A stretch of 64,000 nt of DNA from Paludibacter propionicigenes. GTDB taxonomy: Bacteria > Bacteroidota > Bacteroidia > Bacteroidales > JAIFNL01. The position numbers were made by a program, and so were the translations under genes. This document shows positions 1,933-63,486 of the stretch, piece after piece (the first letter of the stretch is position 1; each line of letters begins with the position of its first letter). The DNA is taken from the NCBI GenBank assembly GCA_020721325.1, contig DYNA01000002.1, positions 7,037-71,036 of the forward strand. Direction: 5' to 3'. The notes under the pieces were generated by a model. It worked only from the letters and a program-made list of their open reading frames with translations, had not been told where the DNA came from and did no database searches.

Positions 1933-1950
1933 ATGCAAAATACTTAAAAT

Positions 1951-8960: not shown

Positions 8961-8978
8961 AAAAAAATGTAAAACATT

Positions 8979-9028: not shown

Positions 9029-9048
9029 ATTGAAAAAAATCAAATAAT

Positions 9049-9339: not shown

Positions 9340-9401
9340 TTGTTTTATGATGTTTTTATTTTTTTATACTATAAAAAACTGGGATAATTTATTAAAATAT
9401 T

Positions 9402-11055: not shown

Positions 11056-11153
11056 GGTTTTATTCTTTTTTTTACGGAATTAATTTTTAAAATTATCAAC
11101 AAATTGGGGCTTGAAATATATTTTTTTTTAACAAACAAAAATACAATTTTTTT

Positions 11154-12257: not shown

Positions 12258-12335
12258 TTTTTATTTTTTATATTTTTTTGAAAAAAAATTGAAAAAAACG
12301 ATACAAAAGTATATTTTTTTTGAAAAAAAAATTGT

Positions 12336-25320: not shown

Positions 25321-25350
25321 CTATATTTTTTTTTCTAAAAATTTCAAAAA

Positions 25351-44863: not shown

Positions 44864-44875
44864 AATCAGCAACTT

Positions 44876-46475: not shown

Positions 46476-47348
46476 ATGAAACAAAAATATCTCTTAATCA
46501 CAATTTTAGCTATCGTAAGCTTTTCTTTTAAAAGCGACAATCCAGCTTATTTATTATACAATTATAAAGGAAAACAAGCTGAATACGATAAAATGATAGA
46601 AGATTTATCCAAAGCAGATGTTGTTTTTTTTGGCGAATTACACACAGACCCCATTGCCCATTGGTTACAACTTGAAATCACTCAAGATTTTTTTGAATTA
46701 AAAAAACAAGACTTGATTTTAGGTGCTGAGATGTTTGAATCAGATAATCAATTACTTGTAAATGAATATCTTGCAGATTTCTACGACGACAAAAAATTTG
46801 AAGCCGAAGCCAAACTTTGGAACAACTACAAAACCGATTACAAGCCGGTTTTAGATTTTGCAAAAGCCAATCAATTGAAATACATTGCAACAAACATTCC
46901 TCGCCGATATGCTTCAATTGTGCATAAAAAAGGTTTTGAAGGACTTAAAGAACTCAGCCCCGAAGCTAAAGCACTGATAAGCCCAGACTTAGAACGACTC
47001 TACGATAAAGATGTAAAATGCTACGCCGAAATGTTGAACATGGCAGGCATGGGCGGACATGTAAACGAAAATTTTCCAAAAGCGCAAGCTGCTAAAGATG
47101 CTACAATGGCACATTTCATTTTAAAAAACTGGCAAAAAGGCAAACTTTTTTTCCATTTTGACGGTGCTTACCACTCCGATAATTACGAAGGAATTGTTTG
47201 GTGGTTGAAAAAATTAAAACCCGAACTCAACATAAAAACCATTAGCACGGTTTACCAAAAAAATATTCAAGAATTAGATGAAAATAACAAGAACAGAGCC
47301 GATTACATTATTGCGGTTCCGGAAAATATGACTCAAACGCAACGATAG
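46476..47348 (+). CDS. ChaN-family (haem/iron-associated) lipoprotein
   Basis: VVFFGELHTDPIAHWLQLEI near the N-terminus matches the ChaN/Cofac_haem_bdg pattern as I recall it. Signal peptide present. Confidence 0.6.
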   Translation: MKQKYLLITILAIVSFSFKSDNPAYLLYNYKGKQAEYDKMIEDLSKADVVFFGELHTDPIAHWLQLEITQDFFELKKQDLILGAEMFESDNQLLVNEYLADFYDDKKFEAEAKLWNNYKTDYKPVLDFAKANQLKYIATNIPRRYASIVHKKGFEGLKELSPEAKALISPDLERLYDKDVKCYAEMLNMAGMGGHVNENFPKAQAAKDATMAHFILKNWQKGKLFFHFDGAYHSDNYEGIVWWLKKLKPELNIKTISTVYQKNIQELDENNKNRADYIIAVPENMTQTQR

Positions 47349-47388
47349 CCTACTCAGGTAAAATAAAAAATAAAACGGTAAAAAAAAA

Positions 47389-47453
47389 GAATTAAATTTT
47401 GTATTTGTTTTTTAACAAAAAAGAAAAAATAGAACAAATACAAAATTTAATTC
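47389..47453. terminator. Long perfect inverted repeat between convergent genes
   Basis: 21-bp perfect arms gaattaaattttgtatttgtt (47389-47409) and aacaaatacaaaatttaattc (47433-47453), with a 23-nt spacer. Confidence 0.6.
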
Positions 47454-47485
47454 GCTAAATACACATTCAATAAATAACTTTTATT

Positions 47486-50400
47486 TCAAATTTTTATTCC
47501 AAAAACCAAAACATCGTCAATTTGTTCTAAATCGCGTTTCCATTTAATATAGGCTCTCTCTAAAATTTCCTTCTGTTCCTTCATAGACTTGTCTTGAATG
47601 GATAAAAGCAACTCTTTAAATTGTTTTGCCTTAAATTTATCACCGATTTCTCCTCCAAATTGGTCAACATAACCATCTGAAAATGAGTACAATGTATCAC
47701 CGCGTTGAATTTTAAAAGTTTGTGTAGAAAAAGGAATTTCTTTCATGTAAATTCCAATTGGCTGCCTGTCGGCTTTTAATTGGAAAAATTCATAAGCGTG
47801 CTCGTCTTTTGTTTCAACGGGTCGAATGATGTAAAGTGGATTATAAGCTCCTGAAAATAAGACTTCTAAGTTTTCAAAATCAATGATAGTCAAAGCTATA
47901 TCCATGCCATCTTTCTGTTCTCCCGATTTTCCTTCTTGGTGCAGCGAAGTTTTAACTTTTTCACGTAACTTGTCTAAAATAAAACCGGAATTTTTTATAT
48001 TTTGCTCATTCACTATTTCATTTAAAAAAGCACTTCCCAACAAACTCATAAAGGCTCCGGGTACACCATGTCCAGTACAATCGGCAGCAACTACAACTAC
48101 TTGATTATCAATCTTTTTCACCCAATAAAAATCGCCACTTACAATATCGCGGGGCTTATACATAATAAAATGGTCGTATAAAATAGAATGAACATATTCG
48201 TCGGAAGGTAAAACGGCTTCCTGAATTTTTTGAGCATAACTAATACTATCAAGAATATGTTTTCGATGTTTATAAGCTATATCACGCTGTTCCTCAATAT
48301 GTTTCTTGCTTTCATTAATTTCATAAGTTCTCTCCCGAACAATTTCTTCCAAAGCCTCTTTCTCTTTTGCAGAAGCACGCATTCGCCAGTCAAATAAAAG
48401 TTTTATGGTAATAATAAATACCAAAATATATATTAAAATTGCCCACCAACGTCTGAAAATAGGAGTCAAAATTTTAAAACTTAGAGTTGCTTTTTCGGCA
48501 TTTAAGCCAAATTCATTTTTGGCTTCTACTACAAAAACATAATTTCCATCGGGTAAATTGGTATAATCTTTCATTGCCGTAGAACTCCAATCAGATGTAT
48601 CTTTGTCAAAACCCTGCAAATAATATCGGTATAAAATTTGTCCTTTGGCAGGAAACACGGGCAAAGTGTACTCAAAATGAAGGGAATTAAAATCGTAATT
48701 CAATTTAAGAACTTCGCCTTTTTTATTTTCAATTTGAAAAAAAGTATCTGCAAGAATACTCGAAAATTTTGTAATGAGCGTTTTAAATTGATTTGAATAA
48801 TTATAGGGTAAAGTATTGTTTACTAAAACGATACCTTCTTTTCCACCCAACCATAATTTATTTGTTGAAACATCTTTGAAAAAAGTATTAACTTGAAAAT
48901 CTGTAATGGGCTTGAATACAGTATGATAAGTATGTCTGTTTTGTTTTTGTTTTTCGGCATCGAAAGTAAAAATATAAGAATTGCGTAGTTCACCATTTGT
49001 TATAAAAAACTCATTTTCAGACATTTGTATAAAATTCCCTATCCATTGCTGATACGAAGTAGTATCGCTTTTCATTAAATTATAATTTTCTAAACGCATA
49101 TTTTTCCAATCGATTGAAAATAAACCTTTTTCACTTGAAAAGAAAACATCTTCTTGAAAATTGTTTAAGTGAAATGTAATAACATCTTCGTTGGTTTGAA
49201 TTGTTTCAATTCGCTGTTTTTCAATATCATAAGTAATTATTCGATTGGGTAAAATTTCAAAAATTAAATGAGAACCATACTCCGCCATTTTATTAACATC
49301 GCCCAGTAAATTATTGATTTGCTGAACAATTTTTATCTCTGGTTTTGAAATATCAATAATATTACACGCCTGAGTATGAGCAGAATATATCCAGTTTGAA
49401 TTTATTTTTGATTGCAAAAGTGAAAAAGTAAATTCGTTTATTGATGTTTTATTTAATTTATTGTTGCTATTTAATACGTAAATTCCATTTGAACATGATA
49501 TAAACATCTGATTATTAGCTACTAATAAATCTGTACAAGCATATTTAATATCTGAATTTTTTTGAAATTTATCGTTTTGCAAATGAAACAATCCATTGGT
49601 AGTAGCAATAAAAATTAAATTATTAAACTCTTGAATATCAACAACTTCACCTTCTAAACCCGAAGTAATATTATTAAAAAACTGTATGGGAAAATTTATT
49701 TCTACCTTTGAAATACCATCACTTGTAGCTAACCAAATTGAATTTTTGGCATCTAAAAAAACTTTATTAACCGTTTCACTTTGCAAATCAGAGGTTTTAT
49801 CAATTATTTGAACTACAACACCTGAATTGTTTACAATCACCATTCCCCCAGAAAGTGTTCCCAAAGCATAAAAATTTTCAGATGCCTTTACAACGCTTGA
49901 AACTCCATGCGTTTTTAAATAATCGCTAAGTAATATTTGCATAGGAGTCAAAGAATTATCTTTCAAAACATAAAATCCTTGTTTTGAGGTAATTACAGCA
50001 ATACTACTATCCGAAGTAAGCTCTATCATATCCACAACATCGTAAAGTTTTTCCTCAAAATTTACCGGAATTTTAGCCACTTTTTTATTTTTAAAAATAG
50101 CCAATCCGTCATTCTGCGGAAATTCATTATCTTCCGAAAATAAATACAAAACATCTTTTATTCCAAAAGCCGAACGAATTTTTGATTTGAATTTGAAAAT
50201 CGAAAGTTTTTTATTTTCATAAATAAACATTTTATCTTCTTCAATAAAATACTGGGTATTTTTTATACAAACGACTTTAAAAATACGCCCAACATCTTGA
50301 TTTTTAAGAGAATCAGCAAGTGAAACAAAAGATAGATTTCCAAATTTATCGTGTTGTAAAAAGCCAAAATCGGATAATCCTCCGGCAAAAATGACACCAT

Positions 50401-50683
50401 GCTCGTTTTTTGCCAGCGACAATACACGCATTCCGCTATTCATGGCTATTTTTGTCCATTTTGTACCATCAAATTCTAAAATTCCGGCAAAATTTGCAAA
50501 ATACATTTTGCCGTTTTTAGCTTGAAGAACATCATAATTTTGCTCATGCGATTGATACTGTTTTGTAGTAAAATTTAATACAAATGGACTCGCATTTTCG
50601 CGTGTAAAATTCTGAGCTGCAAGGTTTAACACTAAGAATATTAAAAAAATTTGCAGCTTTATTTTTAAAATTATAGTTTTCAT
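47486..50683 (-). CDS. Periplasmic beta-propeller/Y_Y_Y sensor fused through one TM helix to a SpoIIE (PP2C-type) phosphatase
   Basis: Signal peptide from MKTIILKIKLQIFLIFLVLNLAAQ; the ORF extends to 50710. About 740 aa of propeller-type repeats plus a Y_Y_Y-like module (YRYYLQGFDKDTSDWS). TM helix WWAILIYILVFIITIKLLF. C-terminal PP2C region (SGDFYWV...ADCTGHGVPGA...SDGYVDQFGG). Confidence 0.8.
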   Translation of the reverse strand: MKTIILKIKLQIFLIFLVLNLAAQNFTRENASPFVLNFTTKQYQSHEQNYDVLQAKNGKMYFANFAGILEFDGTKWTKIAMNSGMRVLSLAKNEHGVIFAGGLSDFGFLQHDKFGNLSFVSLADSLKNQDVGRIFKVVCIKNTQYFIEEDKMFIYENKKLSIFKFKSKIRSAFGIKDVLYLFSEDNEFPQNDGLAIFKNKKVAKIPVNFEEKLYDVVDMIELTSDSSIAVITSKQGFYVLKDNSLTPMQILLSDYLKTHGVSSVVKASENFYALGTLSGGMVIVNNSGVVVQIIDKTSDLQSETVNKVFLDAKNSIWLATSDGISKVEINFPIQFFNNITSGLEGEVVDIQEFNNLIFIATTNGLFHLQNDKFQKNSDIKYACTDLLVANNQMFISCSNGIYVLNSNNKLNKTSINEFTFSLLQSKINSNWIYSAHTQACNIIDISKPEIKIVQQINNLLGDVNKMAEYGSHLIFEILPNRIITYDIEKQRIETIQTNEDVITFHLNNFQEDVFFSSEKGLFSIDWKNMRLENYNLMKSDTTSYQQWIGNFIQMSENEFFITNGELRNSYIFTFDAEKQKQNRHTYHTVFKPITDFQVNTFFKDVSTNKLWLGGKEGIVLVNNTLPYNYSNQFKTLITKFSSILADTFFQIENKKGEVLKLNYDFNSLHFEYTLPVFPAKGQILYRYYLQGFDKDTSDWSSTAMKDYTNLPDGNYVFVVEAKNEFGLNAEKATLSFKILTPIFRRWWAILIYILVFIITIKLLFDWRMRASAKEKEALEEIVRERTYEINESKKHIEEQRDIAYKHRKHILDSISYAQKIQEAVLPSDEYVHSILYDHFIMYKPRDIVSGDFYWVKKIDNQVVVVAADCTGHGVPGAFMSLLGSAFLNEIVNEQNIKNSGFILDKLREKVKTSLHQEGKSGEQKDGMDIALTIIDFENLEVLFSGAYNPLYIIRPVETKDEHAYEFFQLKADRQPIGIYMKEIPFSTQTFKIQRGDTLYSFSDGYVDQFGGEIGDKFKAKQFKELLLSIQDKSMKEQKEILERAYIKWKRDLEQIDDVLVFGIKI

Positions 50684-50724
50684 ACGATATTTTCTACAAA
50701 AAAAAATCAAAATTTAATATCATT

Positions 50725-53718
50725 TTATAAACTCCAAACTTTTGAAGCATATTTTTGTGCAAAAATTTCATCTTCTAAAAGTAAATTATTTAAAATATAA
50801 ATCTTTGCTCTTAACAAAACACACTGATTTTTAGCTGTATAAACTAATTCTCTCAAATTATCAGTTGTGTTGTAAATACATAAAATATCACCATCGGATA
50901 TATAGCTATTTTTTTCATTATCAAGCAATAATCCCGAAAATAAGATATAGAACCAACTTGCATTTTCTACACTGATATGCAACTCAGAACCATTATTTAA
51001 TTCCAAAATCTGAGTTTCTTCAGCCAAACTTTGCAATTTATGATATTCGATGGTTTTAAATAAATCTTTTGCGTGTAAATATACTAATTTATTGTATATC
51101 AATTTATTAAAATTATTTCGTAATTCATTTTTAGTAGGTAAAAGTTTTAAAAATGTAAATTTTGGAGTATTTAAAACTACAAATTCGTCGTAAAGATTTT
51201 CATTTAATACCAATAAACTTTGTGCAGCTATTTGACGCATCATCTCACTTTTATTGATTATATTAGCCTTTAAAACTGCTATAACTTCTGATGTAGGAAA
51301 ATTTAAAAGGTATTTAAGAGCAGTCGTTTTTGAAAAAAAACTAATTTTGCCTACAGGCGAATTTACAATATTAATTAAACGCTGTTTAACAGTTAAATTT
51401 GGATATGCAAAGGTTAATTTGAATATTTTGAGTAATTCACTGATACTTAGCTTGTTAAAAATCGGTAAAACAATATTCTTATGCTCTTCATCTATCACTA
51501 AATCAGCTATTTCAAGTGCAAAACTTCTATTTTCAGATGTTTCACTATCTAAATTTTGTTTAATCAAATAAATAGCTGTAGAATCATAAATTACAGACAA
51601 CAATGACATGATTTTGTTCAAAGTGAGCAATAATTCTGTTTGTAAAGCACTCAAAATCAACTCATCATCATTCAATTCTTTCAAATCAAATAAACAAGCA
51701 GTAATGTAAACATAATTATCAATTTCTTCTTCTAACTTATTAGAAAACAATAACTTCTCACTTTTATTGGATTTATAATTCAAACTTCCCAAAGCCAAAA
51801 TTATTCGTTCACTTATAATTTTATTGGGATAATTCAAATTCGTTTTAAAAAAATTCACAACTTCCTTTCCACCAATTTCTTCCAAAACCGAAATAATTTT
51901 TAATTGCAATTCGGTATTAAATTCCATTCGCCGAAAAAGTTGAATAATACTTGTAACAATCTCATTACCAACATTTTTTATTGCTGATGCAGACGTATCG
52001 CTAAATTCACGAATAGAAAAATTGTTAATTAAAGCATAGAAAAAATCTTTATCTTTCATTTTTCCTGCTGTAATAATGGCTTCGGTGCGAACGCGAAAAT
52101 TTTCGTCTGTAAGCAATTTTTTCAACAAACGTTCAACCTTATATATCTGATAATTAGAAAATTCGGCTGCTGCAAAACGGCGTTCGGTCGGTTTTTCAGA
52201 TTTTGACCACAGCATTAAATCTTTAAATTTAAAATTCGATTCTACCGTTTCAAACATCTGAATATCATGCTCTTTAACCAACTTATAGGTATGAAAAGGC
52301 AAAATAATTCGAGTTAATTTTACAATCGAAAGTTGACTTCGCGTTTTTGCATTTAAAATGTAGTGCGCTAAAATATCAAATATTTTATCCGTTTTAGTTT
52401 GTGGTTTAAAATTTTCTTTACTTTTTAAAACACTTTGCAAAATTATCTTGTACTCGGTATAAATATCGAAAGTAAATTTGAGCCAGATGAGAATTACAAT
52501 AAATAAAAATACGGCAAAATATTCTAAATTCATGCCGGGAATTTTTACAAAAATAAATAGTAAAATTCCAGCTACTATGCTCGCATAAGCTTTGGGACCG
52601 CTTTCTACTCTGTTCTGAAAAATAACTCTTTCATCGGCGGGTAAAGGCTGAAATAATATTTGAGACGCAGGGTCGTTGAACGATGTGCGCACTGCACGTG
52701 TAAAAAGTCTGCCCAAAGCTACAAATGAAAAAAACAAACTTATTGTACCATAAACCACTCCTACCATTGAAGCCAGCAAAAAGCTAAACGCCAAAACTAC
52801 CGGAAAGGCTAAAAGTCCCAATTTTATTCCATATTTACTCATCATGCGCCCAGACACAAAAGCCTTGAGTATGAACTCAATAATAGAACTTACACCAAAA
52901 AAAACACTCACAAAAGTCGTTAAAGCGTCTTTGTCGGGAAATTCGATTTTCAATTGGGCTTGAAAAATAAAATCGACAAAAAACTGAGCAAAAATAGGGA
53001 TAAATGCAATAAAAAAGATAAGTTTATAATATTTATTTTGAAAAAAAGATATTTTTATAGTGCTTTTTTCAACGTCTTGGGATTGATTTTTTTTAACATG
53101 AGTTTGAAGTTTATCGGCATTTTTTGAAACTAAAAACATCATGAGAATATATGCCACAATTAGAGCCAAACCCGAAATAATTAATAATTGCTCGGTACTT
53201 AAAAATTTGACTAACAGAGGAATAGAAAAAAAACTTATGATACTTGCCAAAACTTCACCTCCGGTAATCAACCCAAAAACCCTTTTAGCTTGCTGCAATT
53301 CAAACAACCGTCCCAATGTACCCCAAAAAGTAACCGCTTGTAGGTATGCAAACACCCGAATCCAAGCGTATAACAAAAAAATAGCAAACACCGAAAGTGT
53401 TAAACTATATGAAATAACTAATAAAACAACCGACAATAATAAAAATGCCATACCCATTTTAACGGTAGTATGAAACATTTTCTTTTTTTGTATAAATGAA
53501 TACCACTGACCTATTAACCAAACAATTATGCCCGATGCGATGAATACCACTGAAAGCATATCGCGCGAAAAAGAACTAATAAAAATAGCTGTGGCACTCG
53601 TTACAAAAAAAGCCAGCGCAACACCCGAAAAAAAAGAATACATAAAAGGCAAGAATATTTTTTTAGAATCATCACCTTTTAAGCCAAAAATGACTTGTAT
53701 TTGCTTTGTTAAATTCAA
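50725..53718 (-). CDS. Polytopic transporter-like domain fused to HEAT repeats and a C-terminal cNMP-binding-like domain
   Basis: 997 aa. The first ~430 aa contain about 12 hydrophobic helices (MFS or NTT/TLC-like). The middle has HEAT/PBS-type repeats (LLTDENFRVRTEAIITAGKM). The last ~130 aa have a CAP-effector-domain pattern (FYILFSGLLL...DGDILC) with a degenerate phosphate-binding cassette. Confidence 0.6.
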   Translation of the reverse strand: MNLTKQIQVIFGLKGDDSKKIFLPFMYSFFSGVALAFFVTSATAIFISSFSRDMLSVVFIASGIIVWLIGQWYSFIQKKKMFHTTVKMGMAFLLLSVVLLVISYSLTLSVFAIFLLYAWIRVFAYLQAVTFWGTLGRLFELQQAKRVFGLITGGEVLASIISFFSIPLLVKFLSTEQLLIISGLALIVAYILMMFLVSKNADKLQTHVKKNQSQDVEKSTIKISFFQNKYYKLIFFIAFIPIFAQFFVDFIFQAQLKIEFPDKDALTTFVSVFFGVSSIIEFILKAFVSGRMMSKYGIKLGLLAFPVVLAFSFLLASMVGVVYGTISLFFSFVALGRLFTRAVRTSFNDPASQILFQPLPADERVIFQNRVESGPKAYASIVAGILLFIFVKIPGMNLEYFAVFLFIVILIWLKFTFDIYTEYKIILQSVLKSKENFKPQTKTDKIFDILAHYILNAKTRSQLSIVKLTRIILPFHTYKLVKEHDIQMFETVESNFKFKDLMLWSKSEKPTERRFAAAEFSNYQIYKVERLLKKLLTDENFRVRTEAIITAGKMKDKDFFYALINNFSIREFSDTSASAIKNVGNEIVTSIIQLFRRMEFNTELQLKIISVLEEIGGKEVVNFFKTNLNYPNKIISERIILALGSLNYKSNKSEKLLFSNKLEEEIDNYVYITACLFDLKELNDDELILSALQTELLLTLNKIMSLLSVIYDSTAIYLIKQNLDSETSENRSFALEIADLVIDEEHKNIVLPIFNKLSISELLKIFKLTFAYPNLTVKQRLINIVNSPVGKISFFSKTTALKYLLNFPTSEVIAVLKANIINKSEMMRQIAAQSLLVLNENLYDEFVVLNTPKFTFLKLLPTKNELRNNFNKLIYNKLVYLHAKDLFKTIEYHKLQSLAEETQILELNNGSELHISVENASWFYILFSGLLLDNEKNSYISDGDILCIYNTTDNLRELVYTAKNQCVLLRAKIYILNNLLLEDEIFAQKYASKVWSL

Positions 53719-53759
53719 ATTGATAATTTTTTATTAATTTTTATTTAAAAAATAAAATT

Positions 53760-54407
53760 TTATTCTTTTTTTCCTAAATTAAAACGATAACCTAAACGAG
53801 TATAAAGCATATTCGATTGAGTATGAAAAATATCTTTTGTAAGTGCTAAATGCAAATTAAAAGCCTTATTCATTTCATAATCAACCGAAGGTCCGACAAA
53901 CCAACTGCCTTCGTTAAACGATTTATCAATTTTCCAATTTCCATAAGCCAAAACTCCAACTAATACTTTAGAAACCACGCGATAACGAATGTATTGAACT
54001 AAATAATAATGGGTTTTCGATTTTTCATTTACACCCCAAAAATAACGTTCTTGGATGTTGATTAATAGTTTTTTATCAAAAAAATCGATATTTTGGTCAA
54101 AACGAAATCCTGTCCAAATTTCTCCGGTTTCGTTAAATTTTGAATATGAAAATAGCTTAAAATATTTATTTGTAATTCCCAACATTAAATCGGTTCGAGC
54201 TACTCTTCCTGAAGGAACGTATTCTTCGGGCAAATAAATAACATCAATCGGTCGCCAACGAAACTCAAACGGAGTATTTTCAATGTTCATACGAATTTCA
54301 GGCGATAATTTTACCCACAATTCTTGCTCCGACTGCGCAAAATTGATTTTACTTCCTAAGAGAAATAATATCAAAAAAAAGTATAATTTATTATAATTTT
54401 TTCCCAT
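53760..54407 (-). CDS. Small predicted outer-membrane beta-barrel protein, function unknown
   Basis: 215 aa with a signal peptide. Alternating amphipathic beta pattern. C-terminal segment LYTRLGYRFNL is aromatic-rich. Confidence 0.5.
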   Translation of the reverse strand: MGKNYNKLYFFLILFLLGSKINFAQSEQELWVKLSPEIRMNIENTPFEFRWRPIDVIYLPEEYVPSGRVARTDLMLGITNKYFKLFSYSKFNETGEIWTGFRFDQNIDFFDKKLLINIQERYFWGVNEKSKTHYYLVQYIRYRVVSKVLVGVLAYGNWKIDKSFNEGSWFVGPSVDYEMNKAFNLHLALTKDIFHTQSNMLYTRLGYRFNLGKKE

Positions 54408-54418
54408 CTCTTCTATTT

Positions 54419-55630
54419 TTATATATTTTTAAAAATCTGCAATAACTCTTCTTCAGGAAAAACCGAACGTCCCAATTGGTAAGCTTTTTCTTTTACATGA
54501 ATTAATGCTTTTTGTATCTGATTATCAGTGAGTTCAACTCCTAACTCGGTGCTTACTTCTTTTATAACACGCGAACTTGCCAGTTGAGTTACAAAAACTT
54601 TTTTACGAATACCTAATATTTCATCAGGGTCAAAAGGCTGAAAACTAAGGGTATCGACAAATGGAGTACCTGTAGAAATGGTATTAACGCCTGTTCCAAC
54701 AATGGGGTCGGTAATAATTATTGGAACTCCGGTCAATTGACTTACTTTTTGAGCGATTTCGGGCAATAATTTTAAATTTGGATTCGATAAAAACAAATTT
54801 TCGCCTTCTATACCCAACCTTTTTTTGAGTAAATGCGGTTCGTGCGAAAGCAAAAACGTTAGTAACTCCGTTTTTAATAAGCCATTTCGCTCAGCCATAC
54901 CCAGCCAAGATGTTGAGGGTAAATAGATTCCATGCCGTATAGCCTCCAAATTATTTTCGAGCGCAAACCCCAAATCGTTGTGAAAATGCACCGAAAATCG
55001 TACTTTCGGGCTTGCATTTTGTTTTACAATTCGCAAAAATTCGGACGTTTCGTAAGGATAAATTTTACCTTGTGTATCGCCCATTCCTACCGTTGCAATG
55101 CCAAGTTCGTGCAATTCGGAAGCTAACTCGCCCAATAGCTGAGGATTACCATCGAAAGCAGCAGCTAACTGAATATCAATTGGCATACCGGCAGCTTTAT
55201 CGAGAGCAAATTTGGCCATATTTAGAGCCGATTCTTTGGCTTCTTTGAGCGTTTTATGCAACATTACGCTGCACAAACGTTCAGAAAATGGTGAAACAAA
55301 AGCCACTCTACCATATTTTGCATTTTTTAAAGATGCTATACTATTGGTTATTTCATCTTTTGAACTGCGACAATTTACTGCCAAATAACAATTATCAACA
55401 TTTTCTGCTAAGTCTTCAATAGCTTTAACTTCTTCTTTTCCAATAGAATAAAAACCGGCAGCAAATACCAAATGGTCAGGTCCATTTTGATTAAATACCG
55501 AAGCATGCAACTTGGCTATTTCAATCCGTTGTTTACCACTCAAAATTGTTTTGGCTTGCGCGCCATCTCTGGCTACCTCTTCCCAAAAAACGATTCTACG
55601 ATTATCTAATGAATTTGTTATTCTATCCAT
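54419..55630 (-). CDS. HMGL-like (DRE-TIM metallolyase) enzyme, homocitrate/isopropylmalate synthase-like
   Basis: Metal/substrate motifs EVARDGAQA and SVHFHNDLGFALEN are present. 403 aa, with no LeuA-type C-terminal regulatory domain. Confidence 0.7.
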   Translation of the reverse strand: MDRITNSLDNRRIVFWEEVARDGAQAKTILSGKQRIEIAKLHASVFNQNGPDHLVFAAGFYSIGKEEVKAIEDLAENVDNCYLAVNCRSSKDEITNSIASLKNAKYGRVAFVSPFSERLCSVMLHKTLKEAKESALNMAKFALDKAAGMPIDIQLAAAFDGNPQLLGELASELHELGIATVGMGDTQGKIYPYETSEFLRIVKQNASPKVRFSVHFHNDLGFALENNLEAIRHGIYLPSTSWLGMAERNGLLKTELLTFLLSHEPHLLKKRLGIEGENLFLSNPNLKLLPEIAQKVSQLTGVPIIITDPIVGTGVNTISTGTPFVDTLSFQPFDPDEILGIRKKVFVTQLASSRVIKEVSTELGVELTDNQIQKALIHVKEKAYQLGRSVFPEEELLQIFKNI

Positions 55631-55716
55631 ACAAAAAAAACTATTTTTTATATAAAAAAAACGTATATTATTTTTTTATACAAAAAAAAATTAAACAATA
55701 TTTTTTTATAAAAAAA

Positions 55717-58323
55717 TTAAAATTCGTATTTAATCGTTAAATACAAATTTCTTCCATTTTGCTTCAAACTTGAAGCCAACTCGCCTTGTACTTGGTCAAG
55801 ACCGGGCGAGAAATATTCTTTATTTAAAAGATTAAAAAATGTTAATTGAAAAGAAAATCCATAAAAATTTTGTGGATTATATGTAATTGCTCCATTAAAA
55901 ATAATATACGAGCCAAAAGTATCCAAATTTTGTGGAACACTTGTGTTTTCGCCCGTTATGCGCTTGCTCCTAAAATTCATACGCAAATTAAAATTCCATT
56001 TCTCTTGCCATAAATAATTAGCACCCAAATTGGCTTGATGGGTAGAAATGTCGCTGATTCTCAATTTATTATATGGCTCGCCGGCATCGTTGGTCAAAAT
56101 ATTTCCTTCTGAATCTGTTGGATTGATTAAAAATGGAGCAGTCAATGTATAATTTGCATATAAACTTAACTTATTTATCTGATAATCAGCCATTGCATTA
56201 ATTCCATCGCCCCTTGCCTCACCTTTCGATTGATTTTGATTTGTAAAAGTACCATCGGCTTTTTCTACTCTAACTTCTTGAATGATATTACTATAAAGCG
56301 AGTGGTATGCTGAAATATTAAGAAAAAGCTTTTTATAAAACGTGTGAGCTATTGAAATTTCATAATTTTTAACTTTTTCGGGAGCCAAATTCGGATTTGA
56401 TAGTTCGCGTTTTCCGGCTGCGGTTGAATATTTTTCTCTGTTGGTGGCATCTTTAAATGCTTCGGCATATATCAACTTGAAAATAAAATTATTAGGTGAA
56501 TATACCAAAACAAAACGTGGATTTACGGCATGTTTATATCCTTGATTTTCACGTATTTTGTTGTTATCGTATCGAATACCAACAGTTAAATTCAAATTAT
56601 AAAGTAAACCGACTTTTGCCTGAGAATAAAATCCTAAATCGCGTGAAAAAATGTGATTCCCTCCCGGAATTTCGGTTAAAGGATTTCCTTCTTCTTGGGC
56701 ATTGTTTTTGGTGGACATTGTATAATCGCCTTGTATTGAGCTGTATCGAATTTCAAAACCCGAAATTAAATCCACTCTTTTGTGGGGTGTGTAAATGACT
56801 TTAAATTCATTCCTCATCTGATTTGAAATCTGAAAAAGGTACATGCTATCCCAAGTTGGAATTTTTCCATCAATCAATTTTGTTAAATCAAAATGACCGG
56901 AAGAATAATTTTTTCTATACCGAACTACATTATTATTTTTGTCAAAATCATGAACTTTAAAATTCAAAAAATTGCTTATATCTAATTTTTCCGAAAGGGA
57001 TTTATTGTATTTTACGTAAAAATTATTGTGAATCGGTCGCCATGCTTGACCTTGCTCAAAAGTCATCTCTATTAAATCATTGTATTGCGCACCGGGTCCC
57101 TCGGCTTTATTCCAATACATGTATCCGAGCAAAAAATCATAAATCTTTAACTTTGCCTCTATTGAATATGCCTGTGTTTTATCCGAAAATTCAACTTTAT
57201 TTAATACATCGTTATCATATTCAAGGGCTTGGGAAATTCCGGTTTCTGTTAAAATTATTTTTCCATCTATATACGAATACAAATCACTGTTTTCGGGATA
57301 TTTTTCTAAAAAAGAAGTTACTTTTTCTGAATTTGTTATATCTAATTTTGAATGATAAAGACTTGATAATTCATCTGTTAAAACATTAGGTTCGTAATCA
57401 TGCCAAGAATAATCCGACAGATTTTGTTCGTTTGATAAAAAAATGCGGGGTGTTATTGAAAACGAAACCGAATTCTTTTTTGAACGAATTGCAAAACTCA
57501 TATCCAACATTCGCGTATTGTACGAGCCATAAGTTAATTGAGCTTTTATACCAAAGTTTTTTCCTGTTTCAATAAAATCTTCCGGATTTTTGGTTATCAC
57601 ATTTATTACTCCCAAAAAAGCATTTGAACCATACATAGTTGAAGCAGGTCCGTAAACAACTTCTATGTTTTTAACATTTGTAAGTGCATATTGCCGAGAT
57701 AAATACACATTACTCGACCACAAATCGTTGTCTTCAACTCCATCAAATAAAAATAAGGTTCGGTTGGTATTTATCGACCTGTAACCCCGTTGATAGGCAT
57801 GAGTATATAAATTGCCGTTGGAGCGAGAAATATCAAATCCGGGCAAATCGTGAAGCACGGCTTCCAAATCCAAATAACCTCTTTCAAGTATCTGTTTTTC
57901 AGTAATTAACGAAACTGTTGCCGGTGCTTCGTTCAAATTCTCTTCCTTCTTAGAAACGGAAGTTACAATTTGGGTAACATTTTCTCTCTTTAATTTCTCA
58001 AATAACGTAATAAACAACAAGTTATCTGAAAGTAAATCGGGTTGAAATTTAGGGTCGATTTGCATAATTCGCTTCATAGCTTGTACCGCGCTTGTGTCGT
58101 CATCGAGGGCTAAATGTGTTTTAACGATTAATTTAAAAGCTTGAATGCGCAAATTGTTATCTGCCGAAAAGTTTGTACACGATTCAAGTTCTTTTAAAAC
58201 CCGTTTGAAATCGCCTGTTTTGTAATCATTTAAAGCGTCGTCTATAATGGCTCTATCGCAATTTTGCGCATAAATCCAACTCTGACTGACCAATAATATA
58301 AAAAATAAAGCTAATTTTTTCAT
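55717..58323 (-). CDS. TonB-dependent receptor with an N-terminal TPR-like helical extension
   Basis: Start taken at MKKLALFFILLVSQSWIYAQ; the ORF extends to 58377. About 100 aa of helical TPR-like sequence precede the plug (NIEVVYGPASTMYGSNAFLGVINVITK). A long barrel follows, ending in YLTIKYEF. Confidence 0.85.
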   Translation of the reverse strand: MKKLALFFILLVSQSWIYAQNCDRAIIDDALNDYKTGDFKRVLKELESCTNFSADNNLRIQAFKLIVKTHLALDDDTSAVQAMKRIMQIDPKFQPDLLSDNLLFITLFEKLKRENVTQIVTSVSKKEENLNEAPATVSLITEKQILERGYLDLEAVLHDLPGFDISRSNGNLYTHAYQRGYRSINTNRTLFLFDGVEDNDLWSSNVYLSRQYALTNVKNIEVVYGPASTMYGSNAFLGVINVITKNPEDFIETGKNFGIKAQLTYGSYNTRMLDMSFAIRSKKNSVSFSITPRIFLSNEQNLSDYSWHDYEPNVLTDELSSLYHSKLDITNSEKVTSFLEKYPENSDLYSYIDGKIILTETGISQALEYDNDVLNKVEFSDKTQAYSIEAKLKIYDFLLGYMYWNKAEGPGAQYNDLIEMTFEQGQAWRPIHNNFYVKYNKSLSEKLDISNFLNFKVHDFDKNNNVVRYRKNYSSGHFDLTKLIDGKIPTWDSMYLFQISNQMRNEFKVIYTPHKRVDLISGFEIRYSSIQGDYTMSTKNNAQEEGNPLTEIPGGNHIFSRDLGFYSQAKVGLLYNLNLTVGIRYDNNKIRENQGYKHAVNPRFVLVYSPNNFIFKLIYAEAFKDATNREKYSTAAGKRELSNPNLAPEKVKNYEISIAHTFYKKLFLNISAYHSLYSNIIQEVRVEKADGTFTNQNQSKGEARGDGINAMADYQINKLSLYANYTLTAPFLINPTDSEGNILTNDAGEPYNKLRISDISTHQANLGANYLWQEKWNFNLRMNFRSKRITGENTSVPQNLDTFGSYIIFNGAITYNPQNFYGFSFQLTFFNLLNKEYFSPGLDQVQGELASSLKQNGRNLYLTIKYEF

Positions 58324-58333
58324 TTTTTTAAAC

Positions 58334-61300
58334 TTATTTTGGCAAATTTTCATCGTATTTGATACCTTCACCCACAAATTTTAACCAATTTTTTTCACTC
58401 ATATTTTTTGAAACTTTGCTTCTTACAAAATTTTTCAAATCTGTAATATTAATTGCTGTAATTAATATCGATTTGTCGGCACTTACGGAAATGATATTCT
58501 TCTTTTCGTTTATAAAACCTAAAGCATAAACCCATGAGTCATGTTTGTCAATTACCAAAGGAGGTATCAACTCAAAATCTGCTGCATTCCACACTTTTAT
58601 TAATCCATCATAACTTGCTGATATTAAACGCTTTCTGCTTTCATCATAAAGCAATGCAGTTACACCCGACTGATGAGCTAAAAATTCATTAACAGGCTTA
58701 TTACCAAGTATTTCTATTATTCCCGAATAAAAACCGACAGCTAACTCATCGCCGGTTGTAAAACACAGTGAAGTTATTTCTCCTTTACCAGTATTTACCC
58801 GTTTTTTTTCTGAAAAATCAAAAGTATTTAGATAAATTAATTCTCCTGAAACCGTTCCCAAAACTAAAATTTCTCCATTTGAGGTCAGAGCCATGCTGTT
58901 GATACGTTCTGTGGCTTTATGCACGGTTTTTACACTAAGTAAATTGCTTGTGTTCCAAGATTTTACAGTTCCATCAAGGCTTAGCGAATAATACGTTGAA
59001 AAACTACTATTACTCAAAATTTGTGTAACTACTCCAGAGTGCAAATTTAAAATGGTCGGTTTTTCGGATAAATTATTTTTATTCCAAATAACCACATCAC
59101 CTTTGTTGGTTCCGCCAATGATAATATCGTTTCCGCCAAAAAGTAAACTTCTGTAAATCACTTTTGAAAGAAGAGGAGTTTTTAAATTCTGTGGTGCATC
59201 CAAACTTTTTAAAGAAAACATTTTTACACTTCCATCATCTGACGAAGTTACAAAATTTACACCGTCAGGTGAAATTGCAACAGCTCTAACTGCCTCATTA
59301 TGAGAAATTTTCCCTTTCAAATGAATTGATAAATTTGCAACATCGGCAAGAGCATTAAAAATTTCGGGGCTGTTTGGGTCGCCTCCAAAATTTGAATTGA
59401 AATAGTATGCTTGCAAAGCCAAAATCATTGGTAATTCACGCTCTTGCTCTGTGAGTTGAAAAATCTCACTTTGCGATTCTTTTAACTTTATTGCATTAAC
59501 TGCCAATGCTTTAGCAATAGCCAAACGCCGCATTGTATCCGTTTTAGCCTCCGAAAATTCGGCTCGTAATTTTTGTTCTAAGGCTATTTTTTCATTTTTA
59601 ACAGCTTGGTCGCGCATTTTTTCGGCTTCTTTTTTGGAGCGAAACGCGGCATCTCGAGAATTTAAAGCTTCTTTTTCTGCCAAAAGAGCCAGTCCTTTTT
59701 GCCTAATCGCCTCATTTTGTTGCGTTACGGCGATTAATTTTTGGGCATCAGCCAAAAGTTTTTGCTCTTCAGCTATAAAACGTTGTTGCTGAGCTATTTT
59801 TCCTTGCGAAATAGCTTCTTTTCGCTTTTCTTCGGCTAATTTACTTTCCGAAATGGCTATTTTTTCTTTTTCTTTTGCCTTTTTCTCACTTGCCTCGGCT
59901 TTGTATTGCAAATTTAGGGCAACAACCAAAAACAAAATGGAAATAATAGATGCAGCCGCTAAAATGATTACAAAAATTCGAGTTCTTCTAAGAGATTGAT
60001 GCTGCTTTCGCTCCTTTACTCCTATCACTCGTTCATCTTCTTCTTTGCTGAAATTCAAGTAATTAATTGCCCTATCATAAGCCGGATTGTAGCGTTTTGC
60101 CCAAGTTTGATTGGGTGAATTATCTTCAAACCATTTCAGAGCCAACAATAAATCCGGTCCCGAAAGCAAACCACTTTTTCCAATTTGATACAATTCTGCC
60201 GAATTTGAAATTCGTAAATAAATTTGCGCCGATTCGGTTTCCTCTCTTACCCAATCAATTAAACGTTTCCAAATACGCATAATACTTTCGTGAGAAATGT
60301 CAATAATTACCGAAGAATTTAATCTGACACTTTCAGGTGGAAATAAAAAACTATTGCCTTCTGCACGAAAAACATTGATTACCTCAATTACATCTTCTTC
60401 TTTACTTACAGTGATTGAGCAAATATCGCCCAATGATGTCGGACGGCGAGTAGCTCGATTATCATCACCTAAAAAAGTTAAAGCTTTAAAAATTTTTTCG
60501 GTAATTTTTTGTAAAGCATCATCGTGCAACTGTTCATAAATAAATTCGGCATGTACCGAAAGTGCATCTGAAATTGTTCCTACTGCTGTATAATGCTCTA
60601 ATTCAATTACATTGTTGCCTTCCGAATTGAGCAACCAATAATCCCAAGTTCGCATTAAGGCATGTTGCAAAATGGGCAAACTTACATCATTTTTTGTAAT
60701 TTGTTCGGTTATTTCAGCCAACAAAACTTCAGAAAACTCCGCTCCGGCAATGTTTGCAGGTCCTAAAATAGCCCTTTTTTGCTCATCAACAGTCATTCGC
60801 GGAATCAAATAATGCCCCTGATTGATTATATTTGGAAAATCGGCAAATTCAGTACAATCGCTCAAAAAATCAGCTCGCAATGAAATAATAACCGAAAATT
60901 TATGCTCTTTGCAATGCGCCAAATCAATTATTAATTTAACAAAAAAATCAGACTCGGCTTTTGCTTGAGCAATGTATTCATTTTGTCTAAATCGAAAAAT
61001 CTCTTCAAATTGGTCGATATAAACAAGTAAATTTTTATTATAATTAACTTGTTTTAAAATACTTACAAAATCTCTTACACCTTTTTTTAATAAATCTTCT
61101 ATCTCCTTTGGGTTTCGTAAAGTCTTTAATGATATGTTTTCATTGATAAATAAATCTTGAAAAGCCTCTGACATGCTGAAAAACAAGCTGTTACCCGGTC
61201 TAAATACAATTGAACTCCAATGCTGGTTTTCTTTTTTCAATTTCGGAATTACTCCGGCTTTTATCAAAGAAGACTTACCACTGCCCGAAGCTCCAGTAAT

Positions 61301-61447
61301 TGCCACAAAATTAGATGTTTGCAATATTTCCAAAAGCTCATTGATTTGCTTTTCTCTGCCAAAAAACAAATCGCTCTCTTCTTCACGAAAACTTCTAATT
61401 CCGGGATATGGATTTTTTACATATTTTATTTTTACCTCTGAAGCCAT
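58334..61447 (-). CDS. nSTAND1-like STAND NTPase - TM helix - coiled coil - WD40 repeat protein
   Basis: NPYPGIRSFREEESDLFFGRE, then Walker A GASGSGKS (aa 52-59) and Walker B LLVYIDQFEE. Hydrophobic helix at aa 491-513. Lys/Glu/Ala/Gln coiled coil at aa ~514-665. At least 6 WD40 blades at aa ~712-1000 (e.g. SASYDGLIKVWN, SSDDGSVKMFS). Confidence 0.8.
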   Translation of the reverse strand: MASEVKIKYVKNPYPGIRSFREEESDLFFGREKQINELLEILQTSNFVAITGASGSGKSSLIKAGVIPKLKKENQHWSSIVFRPGNSLFFSMSEAFQDLFINENISLKTLRNPKEIEDLLKKGVRDFVSILKQVNYNKNLLVYIDQFEEIFRFRQNEYIAQAKAESDFFVKLIIDLAHCKEHKFSVIISLRADFLSDCTEFADFPNIINQGHYLIPRMTVDEQKRAILGPANIAGAEFSEVLLAEITEQITKNDVSLPILQHALMRTWDYWLLNSEGNNVIELEHYTAVGTISDALSVHAEFIYEQLHDDALQKITEKIFKALTFLGDDNRATRRPTSLGDICSITVSKEEDVIEVINVFRAEGNSFLFPPESVRLNSSVIIDISHESIMRIWKRLIDWVREETESAQIYLRISNSAELYQIGKSGLLSGPDLLLALKWFEDNSPNQTWAKRYNPAYDRAINYLNFSKEEDERVIGVKERKQHQSLRRTRIFVIILAAASIISILFLVVALNLQYKAEASEKKAKEKEKIAISESKLAEEKRKEAISQGKIAQQQRFIAEEQKLLADAQKLIAVTQQNEAIRQKGLALLAEKEALNSRDAAFRSKKEAEKMRDQAVKNEKIALEQKLRAEFSEAKTDTMRRLAIAKALAVNAIKLKESQSEIFQLTEQERELPMILALQAYYFNSNFGGDPNSPEIFNALADVANLSIHLKGKISHNEAVRAVAISPDGVNFVTSSDDGSVKMFSLKSLDAPQNLKTPLLSKVIYRSLLFGGNDIIIGGTNKGDVVIWNKNNLSEKPTILNLHSGVVTQILSNSSFSTYYSLSLDGTVKSWNTSNLLSVKTVHKATERINSMALTSNGEILVLGTVSGELIYLNTFDFSEKKRVNTGKGEITSLCFTTGDELAVGFYSGIIEILGNKPVNEFLAHQSGVTALLYDESRKRLISASYDGLIKVWNAADFELIPPLVIDKHDSWVYALGFINEKKNIISVSADKSILITAINITDLKNFVRSKVSKNMSEKNWLKFVGEGIKYDENLPK

Positions 61448-61484
61448 TTATTTTTTATTCTTTCATATTTCATATTTTAAAAAT

Positions 61485-61492
61485 CAAAGATA
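61485..61492 (-). promoter_or_regulatory. Bacteroidota-type -7 box TAtcTTTG (minus strand)
   Basis: Plus-strand caaagata is the reverse complement of TATCTTTG. It lies 38 nt upstream of the ATG at 61447. Confidence 0.5.
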
Positions 61493-61653
61493 AAAAAAAA
61501 AAACTAAAAACAAATAAATTAATATAATATTTTTATGCTAATTTCAAAATTAATCTAATTAATTAGGTATTCTTAAAAAAAATAATTTGCTTTTTTAATT
61601 AAAAGAATATCATTCAATTTGTAAAAATATTTTTTTATTTAAAAAAAAATTTC

Positions 61654-61661
61654 TATTTTTG
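61654..61661 (+). promoter_or_regulatory. Bacteroidota-type -7 box TAttTTTG
   Basis: Exact TAnnTTTG match, 55 nt upstream of the ATG at 61717. Confidence 0.5.
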
Positions 61662-61716
61662 ATTTGAAAGAATATATTTTTTTAAGAAATTTAATAATTT
61701 ATAAATAAACAAAAAC

Positions 61717-63486
61717 ATGAAGATAAAATTCATATTAATAAGCTTTTTTTTACTTTTTTCTATTCATTCTTTTTCTCAAAAAGATATAACTGAAAAAGAG
61801 CTTATTGAACATATTTCATTTTTAGCATCTGATGATTTGAAAGGCAGAAAACCCGGAACGCCCGAAGATTTAAAATCGGCTGAATACATTGCTAACAATT
61901 TGAAAAAGAGCGGTTTTATACTTAAATCCAACAACGGACTTCAACATTTTAATGTAATTACCGGAGTTGAATTAAAGGGAGAAAATTCTGTGTTTTTTTT
62001 AGATAATAAATTAACCGTTGAAACCGATTTTATACCTTTAAGTTTTTCAAAAAATGGAAAGTTTTCAGGTGAAATAGTTTTTGCCGGTTATGGTTTCGAT
62101 ATTAATGAAGACAACCTGAAATGGAATGATTACCAAGATATTGACGTTACAGGAAAGTGGGTTATGGTTTTACAAGGCGACCCCGAACCCAACAATCGCA
62201 ACAGCCTATTCATTCCCTACTCCAATTCGCGCAGTAAAACATTGACAGCCAAAGACAAAGGAGCATTAGGTATTATTTTTGTTTCGGGAAAAATTCAAAA
62301 CGAAAAAGACATACTTACTCCTTTAGACAAACCCAGAGGATTAATTAAAGCGGCAATTCCTGCTTTTGAGATGACACGAAATTTTGCCGACAAACTTTTA
62401 AAAGAAAAAACCATAGATGAATTGGAAAATGAAATGAATACGAATATGAAAAGTGTTCAATTTCAAGTAAATACAAATTTAGAAGCCGTTATAAACGTAG
62501 AATTTATAGAACAACAAACTCAAAATATAGTTGGGTTTTTAGAAGGAAATGACCCAAAATTGAAACACGAACTGATTGTAATTGGCGCACATTTCGACCA
62601 CTTGGGCATGGGCGGATTTGGCTCAGGTTCACGAGTTCCCGACACTACTGCCGTTCACAACGGTGCTGACGATAATGCTTCAGGAGTGAGCGGTATTTTA
62701 GAAATAGCTGAAAAAATAGCTGCAAATAAAAACCAAATCAAAAGAAGTTTGTTGGTTGTTTCGTTTGGCGCAGAAGAAATGGGGCTTTTAGGGTCAAAAT
62801 ATTTTGTGGAAAACCCTATAATGGAGTTAAAAAATATTAAAGCAATGCTCAATTTTGATATGATAGGGCGTTTGGACAAAAATACCAAAAAACTTTCCAT
62901 TGGAGGTACAGGTACCGGAACTGAAACCGAAAACTTGCTTCAAACAATAAAAAATCCATTAAATTTAGAACTTTCATTTTCTAAAGAAGGATTTGGACCC
63001 TCAGACCATGCTTCTTTTTATATAAATAATATTCCGGTATTTTTTATTTCGAGCGGTGCGCACAATGATTACCACACTCCAAAAGATGATTTGGAATTTA
63101 TTAATGGTGAAGGAATGAAACTTATCAGCGACTTTTCTTATGAATTGATAATGAAGCTTTTAAATCAATCCGAGAACTTAACGTTTCAAGAATCCGGACC
63201 TAAAACAGCTCAAAGTTCGAGCCGTGGTTTGAAAGTTACACTCGGCATAATGCCCGCTTTTGGCGAATCGAAACAACCCGGATTGGGTGTTGATGCCGTT
63301 ACTCCCAACCGTCCGGCTCATAAAGGTGGAATGCTTAAAGGTGATATTATTACAGCAATTAATGGAAAAGAAGTTACAAATATTTATGATTATATGAATC
63401 GTTTACAAACTCTTAAAATTGGTGAAACCATTACGGTTGATGTTATTCGCAACGATGAGAAAAAAGTATTACTTATTCAATTATAA
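61717..63486 (+). CDS. M28-family aminopeptidase with PA-like insert and C-terminal PDZ domain
   Basis: M28 metal ligands are present (GAHFDHLG, GADDNASG, FGAEEMGLLGS, DYHTPKDD). C-terminal PDZ domain (GGMLKGDIITAINGKEV). Confidence 0.85.
   Translation: MKIKFILISFFLLFSIHSFSQKDITEKELIEHISFLASDDLKGRKPGTPEDLKSAEYIANNLKKSGFILKSNNGLQHFNVITGVELKGENSVFFLDNKLTVETDFIPLSFSKNGKFSGEIVFAGYGFDINEDNLKWNDYQDIDVTGKWVMVLQGDPEPNNRNSLFIPYSNSRSKTLTAKDKGALGIIFVSGKIQNEKDILTPLDKPRGLIKAAIPAFEMTRNFADKLLKEKTIDELENEMNTNMKSVQFQVNTNLEAVINVEFIEQQTQNIVGFLEGNDPKLKHELIVIGAHFDHLGMGGFGSGSRVPDTTAVHNGADDNASGVSGILEIAEKIAANKNQIKRSLLVVSFGAEEMGLLGSKYFVENPIMELKNIKAMLNFDMIGRLDKNTKKLSIGGTGTGTETENLLQTIKNPLNLELSFSKEGFGPSDHASFYINNIPVFFISSGAHNDYHTPKDDLEFINGEGMKLISDFSYELIMKLLNQSENLTFQESGPKTAQSSSRGLKVTLGIMPAFGESKQPGLGVDAVTPNRPAHKGGMLKGDIITAINGKEVTNIYDYMNRLQTLKIGETITVDVIRNDEKKVLLIQL

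Follow-up and report, generated by a model that had tools for sequence, protein, structure and literature searches.

What do six adjacent genes do together when they encode a STAND NTPase, a TonB-dependent receptor, an HMGL-like enzyme, a small outer-membrane barrel, an NTT-like transporter and a sensor phosphatase? The question is raised by a 64,000-nt stretch of Paludibacter propionicigenes DNA (assembly GCA_020721325.1, contig DYNA01000002.1, positions 7,037 to 71,036; hereafter the window), in which six minus-strand open reading frames (ORFs), numbered G1 to G6 by order of transcription, span positions 47486-61447. A preliminary description of the window had proposed that they form an undescribed envelope module and had named conserved co-localisation in other genomes as the test of that proposal. 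Here, we report that the six-gene order is conserved across Bacteroidota, and we propose tentatively, at slightly less than even chances, that the module serves to make a small anionic metabolite, release it, take it up again and sense it, with a PP2C partner switch as output.

Genomic contexts of G3 homologues, which are plentiful in Bacteroidota metagenomes, were collected from contig look-ups and a G3-profile scan of 185,579 species genomes, and further contexts came from a metagenome scan with a G4 profile. The resulting loci, labelled with L-numbers (L023 being Dyadobacter), were then searched by tblastn with all six window proteins, and their ORFs were clustered. The order and strand of G1 to G6 are kept in ~23 independent lineages labelled Bacteroidota or Chlorobiota, including a Dyadobacter chromosome, and the expected gene was found at each position in every such locus long enough to cover that position. 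Identity to the window protein ranged from 34-68% for G1, 41-73% for G2, 46-81% for G3 and 33-74% for G4 to 29-61% for G5 and 27-60% for G6. The nearest relatives are metagenome-assembled genomes labelled Draconibacterium or Bacteroidetes. The G4-profile metagenome scan returned 11 loci, mostly short, which confirmed the gene order and supplied one variant of the enzyme position described below, with no long new contexts among them. The flanks of the cluster differ between lineages, with a peptidase M28-PDZ gene adjoining only in the closest relatives and genes for pyruvate:ferredoxin oxidoreductase, radical SAM and DUF2851 proteins (the last a likeness by eye) among those found elsewhere. Because the order is kept while the flanking genes differ, the six-gene block is the conserved unit, and because it recurs in ~23 lineages with unrelated flanks, the arrangement lies far beyond chance. 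The module thus passes the co-localisation test set for it, and, given that full-text literature searches returned no description of the cluster or of its swappable enzyme slot, nor of a transmembrane STAND protein paired with an extended TonB receptor, nor of the G4 porin family, its status as an undescribed multi-layer envelope module is supported.

The enzyme encoded by G3 (54419-55630) is a cytoplasmic DRE-TIM metallolyase (HMGL-like, E 6e-29) with an isopropylmalate-synthase- or homocitrate-synthase-like fold, whose closest matches across the whole catalytic domain and subdomains were 3rmj (9e-38) and 6ktq (3e-35). The metal ligands D22, H215 and H217, forming the Asp and HxH set, are invariant in 17 family members, and the family carries RDGAQ instead of RDGEQ and ISTGTP instead of HxSGIH, with STG invariant. 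In LiCMS, MtIPMS and SpHCS, acetyl-CoA is enolised by a catalytic Glu (on the 'xED' strand) and the His of HxSGIH. In the alignment of G3 to 3rmj, this Glu is replaced by Ala and HESGIH pairs with ISTGTP. All curated equivalog cut-offs were failed by G3, the best NCBIfam match being nifV at 106 bits versus a required 463. G3 therefore resembles the Claisen-condensing DRE-TIM synthases for isopropylmalate, homocitrate and citramalate in its best sequence matches and its retained Asp and HxH ligands, whereas it differs from them in the Ala at the Glu position, the ISTGTP and RDGAQ motifs, the sub-cut-off scores and the lack of a LeuA regulatory domain, and it is a distinct clade among isopropylmalate-synthase-like enzymes.

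The position of G3 behaves as an exchangeable enzyme slot on a constant chassis of G1, G2, G4 and G5. The slot is HMGL-like in most loci, is filled by a P-loop protein and an HMGL-methyltransferase fusion in L027 and L055, by an S-adenosylmethionine-dependent methyltransferase replacing HMGL together with a D-2-hydroxyacid dehydrogenase in L057, and by an Acetyltransf_5/FeeM-like GNAT in L064 and L068, the variant obtained with the G4 profile; an extra O-methyltransferase is present in L015, L018 and L029. These enzymes are of biosynthetic or tailoring type. Outside Bacteroidota, G3 homologues in Actinobacteria and Myxococcota adjoin aconitase large and small subunits, a Rieske oxygenase and an AMP-binding enzyme, and those in Planctomycetota adjoin a Sua5/YciO-like gene. 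In Nocardia, Pseudonocardia and Myxococcota (L034, L035, L032 and L031, positions ~4700-12300), a recurring set of LigXa-like Rieske, AMP-binding, aconitase-subunit, HMGL and DUF3179 genes looks like an uncharacterised biosynthetic cluster.

Next to the enzyme gene lie two genes for membrane passage. G4 (53760-54407) encodes a 215-aa protein that matched neither Pfam, the KdgM family included, nor NCBIfam; a search of 5.8 billion proteins yielded only 44 homologues, and not one of these (0/44) carries a Pfam domain. Its AlphaFold2 model (predicted local distance difference test, pLDDT, 92.8) comprises a signal peptide and a 12-strand barrel, bearing out the earlier call of a small outer-membrane barrel, and the nearest solved structures in Foldseek were KdgM, NanC and OmpG. 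Against KdgM (4pr7/4fqe), the TM-score was 0.58-0.59 with a root-mean-square deviation of 3.9 Å at ~11% sequence identity. Many Arg and Lys residues are invariant among G4 homologues, and in the model a barrel lined by basic residues fits an anion-selective channel. G4 thus shares with the KdgM/NanC acidic-solute porins a 12-strand barrel of about 200-230 aa with conserved basic residues, yet it is only ~11% identical to them, lies outside the KdgM Pfam family and is confined to the cluster, that is, G4 is a cluster-specific family.

G5 (50725-53718; weak MFS_1 and HEAT_2 matches, the latter at E 3e-10) contains ~12 hydrophobic transmembrane segments (aa 20-440), followed by cytoplasmic HEAT repeats and a C-terminal fold of the cyclic-nucleotide-binding-domain (cNBD) type at aa 860-997 (50728-51141). 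Its membrane domain, of NTT/TLC-like MFS type and assigned to the inner membrane, matched the ADP,ATP carrier 9j3n over aa 110-436 (E 3.7e-7), and some G5 homologues carry PF03219 and bear the source names ATP:ADP antiporter or Npt1/Npt2. The 138-residue tail was modelled with pLDDT 92.1 and superimposed on the cNBDs of PKA-R, HCN and MloK1 with TM-scores of 0.72-0.76 (Foldseek), and a profile of the tail family finds PKG, PKA-R and HCN by sequence. Distant G5 homologues have a bona fide PF00027 domain, and the phosphate-binding cassette FGE[LM]A...R[ST]A is present in distant relatives P0245, P0248, P0250 and P0251. By contrast, the cassette is not conserved in the G5 clade itself, where only F28, L36 and G70 are near-invariant, so that of the earlier 'cNMP-like' label the fold stands and the residues for binding cyclic nucleoside monophosphates (cNMPs) do not. 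Fusion transporters of the NTT-HEAT(-cNBD) type are widespread; they were described in 2017 and left uncharacterised according to passages of that study (Major et al., PMC5381601), and G5 shares with them an NTT-like membrane domain, HEAT repeats and a cNBD-fold tail, differing in its loss of the cNMP phosphate-binding residues. The passages of that study matched by a term search contain no mention of the G1 to G6 gene context.

At the head of the cluster, G1 and G2 encode a putative signalling pair. G2 (ORF 55717-58377) was assigned the ATG at 58323, 10 nt past the G1 stop, which opens a signal peptide (MKKLALFF...) and gives a coding region of 55717-58323 with plug and TonB-dependent barrel domains. 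The signal peptide is followed by a periplasmic extension of ~105 aa, a TonB-box-like VTSVSKKxEN, the plug and the barrel. The extension, with two conserved Cys and a helical-repeat-like sequence, is conserved in 20 of the 20 aligned homologues, and in these 20 proteins VTSVSKKxEN...EAPATV comes after it. The preliminary description had called this receptor 'TPR-extended'. The extension stands as a conserved feature, whereas its TPR identity is putative only: no Pfam TPR match was seen even at E<=10, and the extension gave only a sub-threshold TssQ_fam match and no Pfam STN match. All other domain calls for the six genes proved correct by Pfam and NCBIfam. The solved relatives PhuR, Cir and BtuB match G2 in the plug alone, which gives no basis for assigning a ligand. 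In NCBIfam and the PDB, heme or hemoglobin receptors score best, and we rejected a heme receptor assignment because these matches are below cut-off or plug-only and no His is seen by eye between the FRAP-like and NPNL motifs.

G1 (58334-61447) carries an nSTAND1 NTPase module at aa 13-421 (PF20703, 292 bits versus a cut-off of 27, E 1e-86) with intact Walker A (GASGSGKSS) and Walker B (VYIDQFEE) motifs. A single strongly hydrophobic segment at aa 486-517, with basic residues ahead of it, is followed by a coiled coil of ~180 aa and a C-terminal WD40 propeller at aa ~714-1011 (Pfam, with WD40 matches in the PDB), giving the combination of nSTAND1 module and C-terminal repeat sensor that defines STAND NTPases. 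The predicted topology is N-in, C-out, with a cytoplasmic NTPase and a periplasmic WD40 propeller. G1 was found in every relative whose contig reaches its position. In L057, a TIR_2 and DUF4062 protein (1191-2723) lies directly 5′ of the nSTAND1-WD40 gene, with whose product it may work as an effector. The pair is reminiscent of TonB-dependent transducers of the FecA-FecR-FecI type, in that G2 has an extra periplasmic domain N-terminal to its TonB box and the product of the adjacent G1 is predicted to cross the inner membrane once, placing one domain in the periplasm and a signalling domain in the cytoplasm. It differs from them in that the G2 extension matches neither STN nor any Pfam family, the partner is a STAND NTPase-WD40 protein rather than a FecR-type anti-sigma factor, and no sigma or anti-sigma gene, including extracytoplasmic function sigma factors, is encoded within the locus.

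The last gene, G6 (47486-50710; Y_Y_Y and SpoIIE), encodes a signal sequence or anchor, a periplasmic tandem propeller with Y_Y_Y domain, a transmembrane segment at aa ~744-768 and a cytoplasmic PP2C/SpoIIE domain at aa 868-1073 (47492-48109). Among solved structures, the sensor is homologous to 4a2l, 3v9f and 3ott, sensor domains from hybrid two-component systems (HTCS) of Bacteroides. The phosphatase matches SpoIIE (E 1e-14), NCBIfam SiaA (E 3e-53, below the equivalog cut-off) and the PDB entry 6k4e, deposited as a 'putative serine phosphatase' (E 2e-31), and its metal-binding Asp motifs SGDFY, DCTGHG, DGMD and SDGY are visible. In relatives, STAS and RsbW-like (HATPase_c_2) genes lie directly 5′ of G1 in L013, L023 and L028, and a SiaC-family gene lies 3′ of G6 in L015 and L018. 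The preliminary description had noted that no RsbV/RsbW-type gene lies nearby, which holds for the whole window, and the absence of a phosphatase substrate there may be explained by these relatives, which carry STAS/RsbW or SiaC beside the cluster. In Dyadobacter (L023), L024, L028 and L055, a histidine-kinase ATPase takes the place of PP2C as the fusion partner of the sensor; in Dyadobacter, genes for a HisKA-HATPase protein and a Response_reg-SpoIIE protein come after that of this histidine-kinase sensor. The predicted output of the cluster is thus consistently PP2C, in Dyadobacter via a putative phosphorelay rather than a direct fusion. Compared with SiaABCD and RsbU/RsbV/RsbW, the cluster is alike in its phosphatase domain and in the SiaC or STAS and RsbW-like genes of its relatives, but it has another sensor domain, embeds the phosphatase in a transport and enzyme cluster, and in the window encodes no kinase, substrate or diguanylate cyclase.

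A comparable combination occurs in Chloroflexi, where clusters hold STAS, RsbW-like, MFS transporter, solute-binding, P-loop, HMGL and dCache-HAMP-SpoIIE proteins, as well as further STAS-like and SpoIIE proteins, STAND-type cyclases and a cNMP-binding protein. Their P-loop protein is homologous to that of L055 (E 2e-38), and their STAS and RsbW proteins share 44-48% identity with the pair beside the Dyadobacter cluster. An 818-aa MFS protein gave a negative homology test against G5 and is regarded as an analogue, and a 284-aa protein considered as a G4 relative proved unrelated, matching the L055 P-loop protein instead. By analogy, the Chloroflexi clusters appear to repeat the same logic from non-homologous parts. 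In one Chloroflexia cluster (L026, 11606-12364), an Imm5 immunity-type protein is encoded between HMGL and the sensor phosphatase.

Because the chassis is constant, the enzyme slot variable, the porin cluster-specific and basic-lined, and the receptor transducer-like, we arrive at the small-anionic-metabolite proposal with its PP2C switch. G3, an enzyme of established family, would make or modify a small alpha-hydroxy- or oxo-carboxylate in the cytoplasm. G5, with its NTT-like architecture, would move the compound over the inner membrane in a direction that we presume to be outward, its HEAT repeats and degenerate cNBD tail possibly serving as a regulatory or docking arm, and the G4 barrel with its conserved basic residues would pass the compound over the outer membrane. 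G2 may then recapture the compound when it is scarce, either as such or in a complexed form, and the G2 extension, placed N-terminal to the TonB box as in transducers, may report receptor occupancy. G1 would receive this signal in the periplasm, as its predicted topology allows, and switch its NTPase. Finally, the G6 propeller/Y_Y_Y sensor would detect the compound in the periplasm and activate the cytoplasmic SiaA-like PP2C, which would dephosphorylate a STAS- or SiaC-type protein encoded elsewhere in the genome, an output type backed by the gene context of the relatives. As sub-options, the compound could carry signals between cells or scavenge metal as a metallophore. Classic metal ligands include the alpha-hydroxy-carboxylates, and some hydroxy-acid methyl esters serve as signals, such as the 3-isopropylmalate methyl ester of yeast and the 3-OH-PAME of Ralstonia; both are analogies only.

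Several points weigh against this proposal. Every functional step in it is inferred. The window contains no gene for a STAS-, RsbW- or SiaC-type partner-switch substrate or kinase. The Glu/His dyad with which the closest relatives of G3 enolise acetyl-CoA is missing from G3, whose reaction could instead be cleavage. The cluster of the window holds no tailoring enzyme, and the GNAT variant of the slot is known from two contigs of just 1.3 kb. To our knowledge, the characterised NTT transporters are importers or antiporters, with no dedicated exporter among them. In addition, a TonB receptor together with a propeller/Y_Y_Y sensor is a hallmark of nutrient-uptake loci in Bacteroidota.

This last point leads to the alternative that survives best, one we consider somewhat unlikely, namely an uptake and catabolic locus resembling a polysaccharide utilization locus (PUL) without glycosidases, in which an exogenous anion would enter through G2 and G4, be imported by G5 and be split by G3 in a lyase or aldolase reaction, with G6 (and G1) sensing it in the periplasm and inducing the locus. 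As in PULs with SusC/SusD and HTCS, a TonB receptor and a tandem-propeller/Y_Y_Y sensor share one putative operon, and the sensor matches are the very HTCS structures 4a2l, 3v9f and 3ott. The DRE-TIM superfamily includes lyases and aldolases, which accords with the missing synthase dyad of G3; KdgM/NanC-type barrels, which G4 resembles, are uptake channels; and the solute-binding protein of the Chloroflexi clusters is typical for import. However, neither a SusD nor a carbohydrate-active enzyme or other hydrolase is present in the cluster, SusD and carbohydrate-active enzymes being likewise missing from its relatives, and the output is PP2C, or in variants a kinase feeding a response regulator-SpoIIE protein, rather than an AraC-type DNA-binding domain. 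A single enzyme would also be insufficient for assimilation, the variant slots hold methyltransferases, an O-methyltransferase and a FeeM-like N-acyl synthase, which are tailoring or biosynthetic types, and the G3 homologues of Actinobacteria lie in biosynthesis-like clusters.

A STAND-led conflict or defence system, in which an NLR-like G1 would monitor the envelope, for example for phage or bacteriocin at the TonB receptor, with the other genes as accessories, appears improbable. nSTAND1 was defined among prokaryotic conflict systems, and papers using the term treat NOD-like receptors, apoptosis or immunity and putative antigen sensors; the TIR_2/DUF4062 protein directly 5′ of the G1 homologue in L057 and the Imm5 protein of one Chloroflexi cluster point the same way. 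Yet a PADLOC scan of all six proteins gave no defence-model match and only trivial P-loop matches (E>1e-4), G1 of the window has no effector domain, the synteny is stable across orders rather than patchy or island-like, and a defence system would not be expected to include an enzyme, a transporter and a porin.

The chance juxtaposition of two or three unrelated units (the STAND gene, an uptake operon and a sensor phosphatase) is very improbable: the 86-nt A/T-rich G2-G3 spacer could hold an internal promoter, but the full order in ~23 lineages at 27-60% identity with differing flanks contradicts a chance origin, as do junctions down to 2-10 nt and G6 output domains that co-vary with accessory genes of the same locus.

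The layout of the window agrees with a single block. All six ORF positions given in the preliminary description were reproduced, and so were its spacings of 10, 86, 11, 41 and 14-41 nt once G2 was started at the ATG 58323. The G2-G3 spacer (55631-55716) consists of A and T only, in runs and imperfect palindromes, and its palindromes had been taken to suggest that there may be two transcription units. Among relatives, its length is not conserved, ranging from 2 to ~190 nt, and it therefore marks no conserved break; a terminator scan returned zero intergenic sites and none at any G1 to G6 junction, so that a two-unit structure is not borne out as a conserved feature. Scanned against Rfam at E<=1, the interval 47000-62000 gave zero matches, which rules out a known riboswitch in the spacer. 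A candidate Bacteroidota -7 box, TATCTTTG, is present where the preliminary description had placed it, at 61485-61492 on the minus strand, 37 nt 5′ of the G1 ATG; given that TAnnTTTG is barely enriched in this AT-rich DNA (31% GC; 139 matches in the window versus 120 expected), it is a candidate promoter element only, and a sigma-70 scan was uninformative for the window (54 sites versus 68 expected). At the other end of the block, the inverted repeat at 47389-47409 and 47433-47453 (21 bp, 23-nt loop) was confirmed as perfect, its arms being 100% complementary; it lies between convergent genes and is likely a bidirectional terminator or unit end.

Convergent to G6 over this repeat is a plus-strand gene (46476-47348) for a ChaN/Tiki-type haem-binding uptake protein (Cofac_haem_bdg, E 5e-56), which is not kept next to the cluster in relatives. 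Further away, a 253-aa 4HB_MCP-HAMP protein without output domain and, 12 nt on, a TrkH cation transporter (44102-46309, plus strand) could form a sensor-gated K+ uptake pair. A second TonB-dependent receptor (39870-41798, plus strand), short at 642 aa and without N-terminal extension, lies 5′ of an asparagine-synthase-like gene (42216-43877, called by eye from its N-terminal sequence). ParB-like (GRGLGALI) and ParA-like (KGGVGKTT) genes at 24433-26148 (minus strand) were likewise recognised from N-terminal sequence and, if these calls are right, the window may be close to the origin or partition region of the chromosome. On the minus strand, a 158-aa protein with a type IX secretion C-terminal sorting domain (Por_Secre_tail; 14604-15080) is encoded beside a 734-aa secreted-looking protein (12403-14607), whose gene end overlaps the former by 4 nt; the sorting domain confirms that the host belongs to Bacteroidota. 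In related loci, a 424-aa protein family, DUF2851-like by eye, recurs 5′ of the cluster in L014, L016 (1403-2677) and L067 (1384-2658), in the last directly followed by the G4 homologue, and L014 has an extra SpoIIE phosphatase of 751 aa (1508-3763) just 5′ of G1, with a repeat-rich N-terminus that is TPR-like by eye.

Each of the six families is already known as such, the NTT-HEAT family from published work; the combination is one of TonB-linked signalling and partner switching. A more far-reaching version of our proposal, which we regard as unlikely, is that the cluster represents a new form of trans-envelope signalling, in which the periplasmic WD40 propeller of a STAND NTPase reads the occupancy of an extended TonB receptor whose ligand is self-made by a swappable synthase and released via an NTT-HEAT transporter and a porin. 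If true, this STAND-TonB circuit would be an autoinducer or public-good circuit of Bacteroidota with a PP2C partner-switch output, and it would provide the first function for the NTT-HEAT-cNBD transporter family. We know of few self-produced extracellular signals in Bacteroidota, and the exchangeable enzyme slot provides a means of finding such secreted molecules, or small metallophores. The parallel Chloroflexi cluster of non-homologous parts suggests that selection maintains the function itself. The conserved block gives a fixed, testable context to NTT-HEAT-cNBD transporters, to transmembrane nSTAND1-WD40 proteins, to a new 12-strand porin family and to a divergent isopropylmalate-synthase-like clade, and it may reveal a coupling of an outer-membrane TonB transporter to cytoplasmic signalling that dispenses with sigma and anti-sigma factors.

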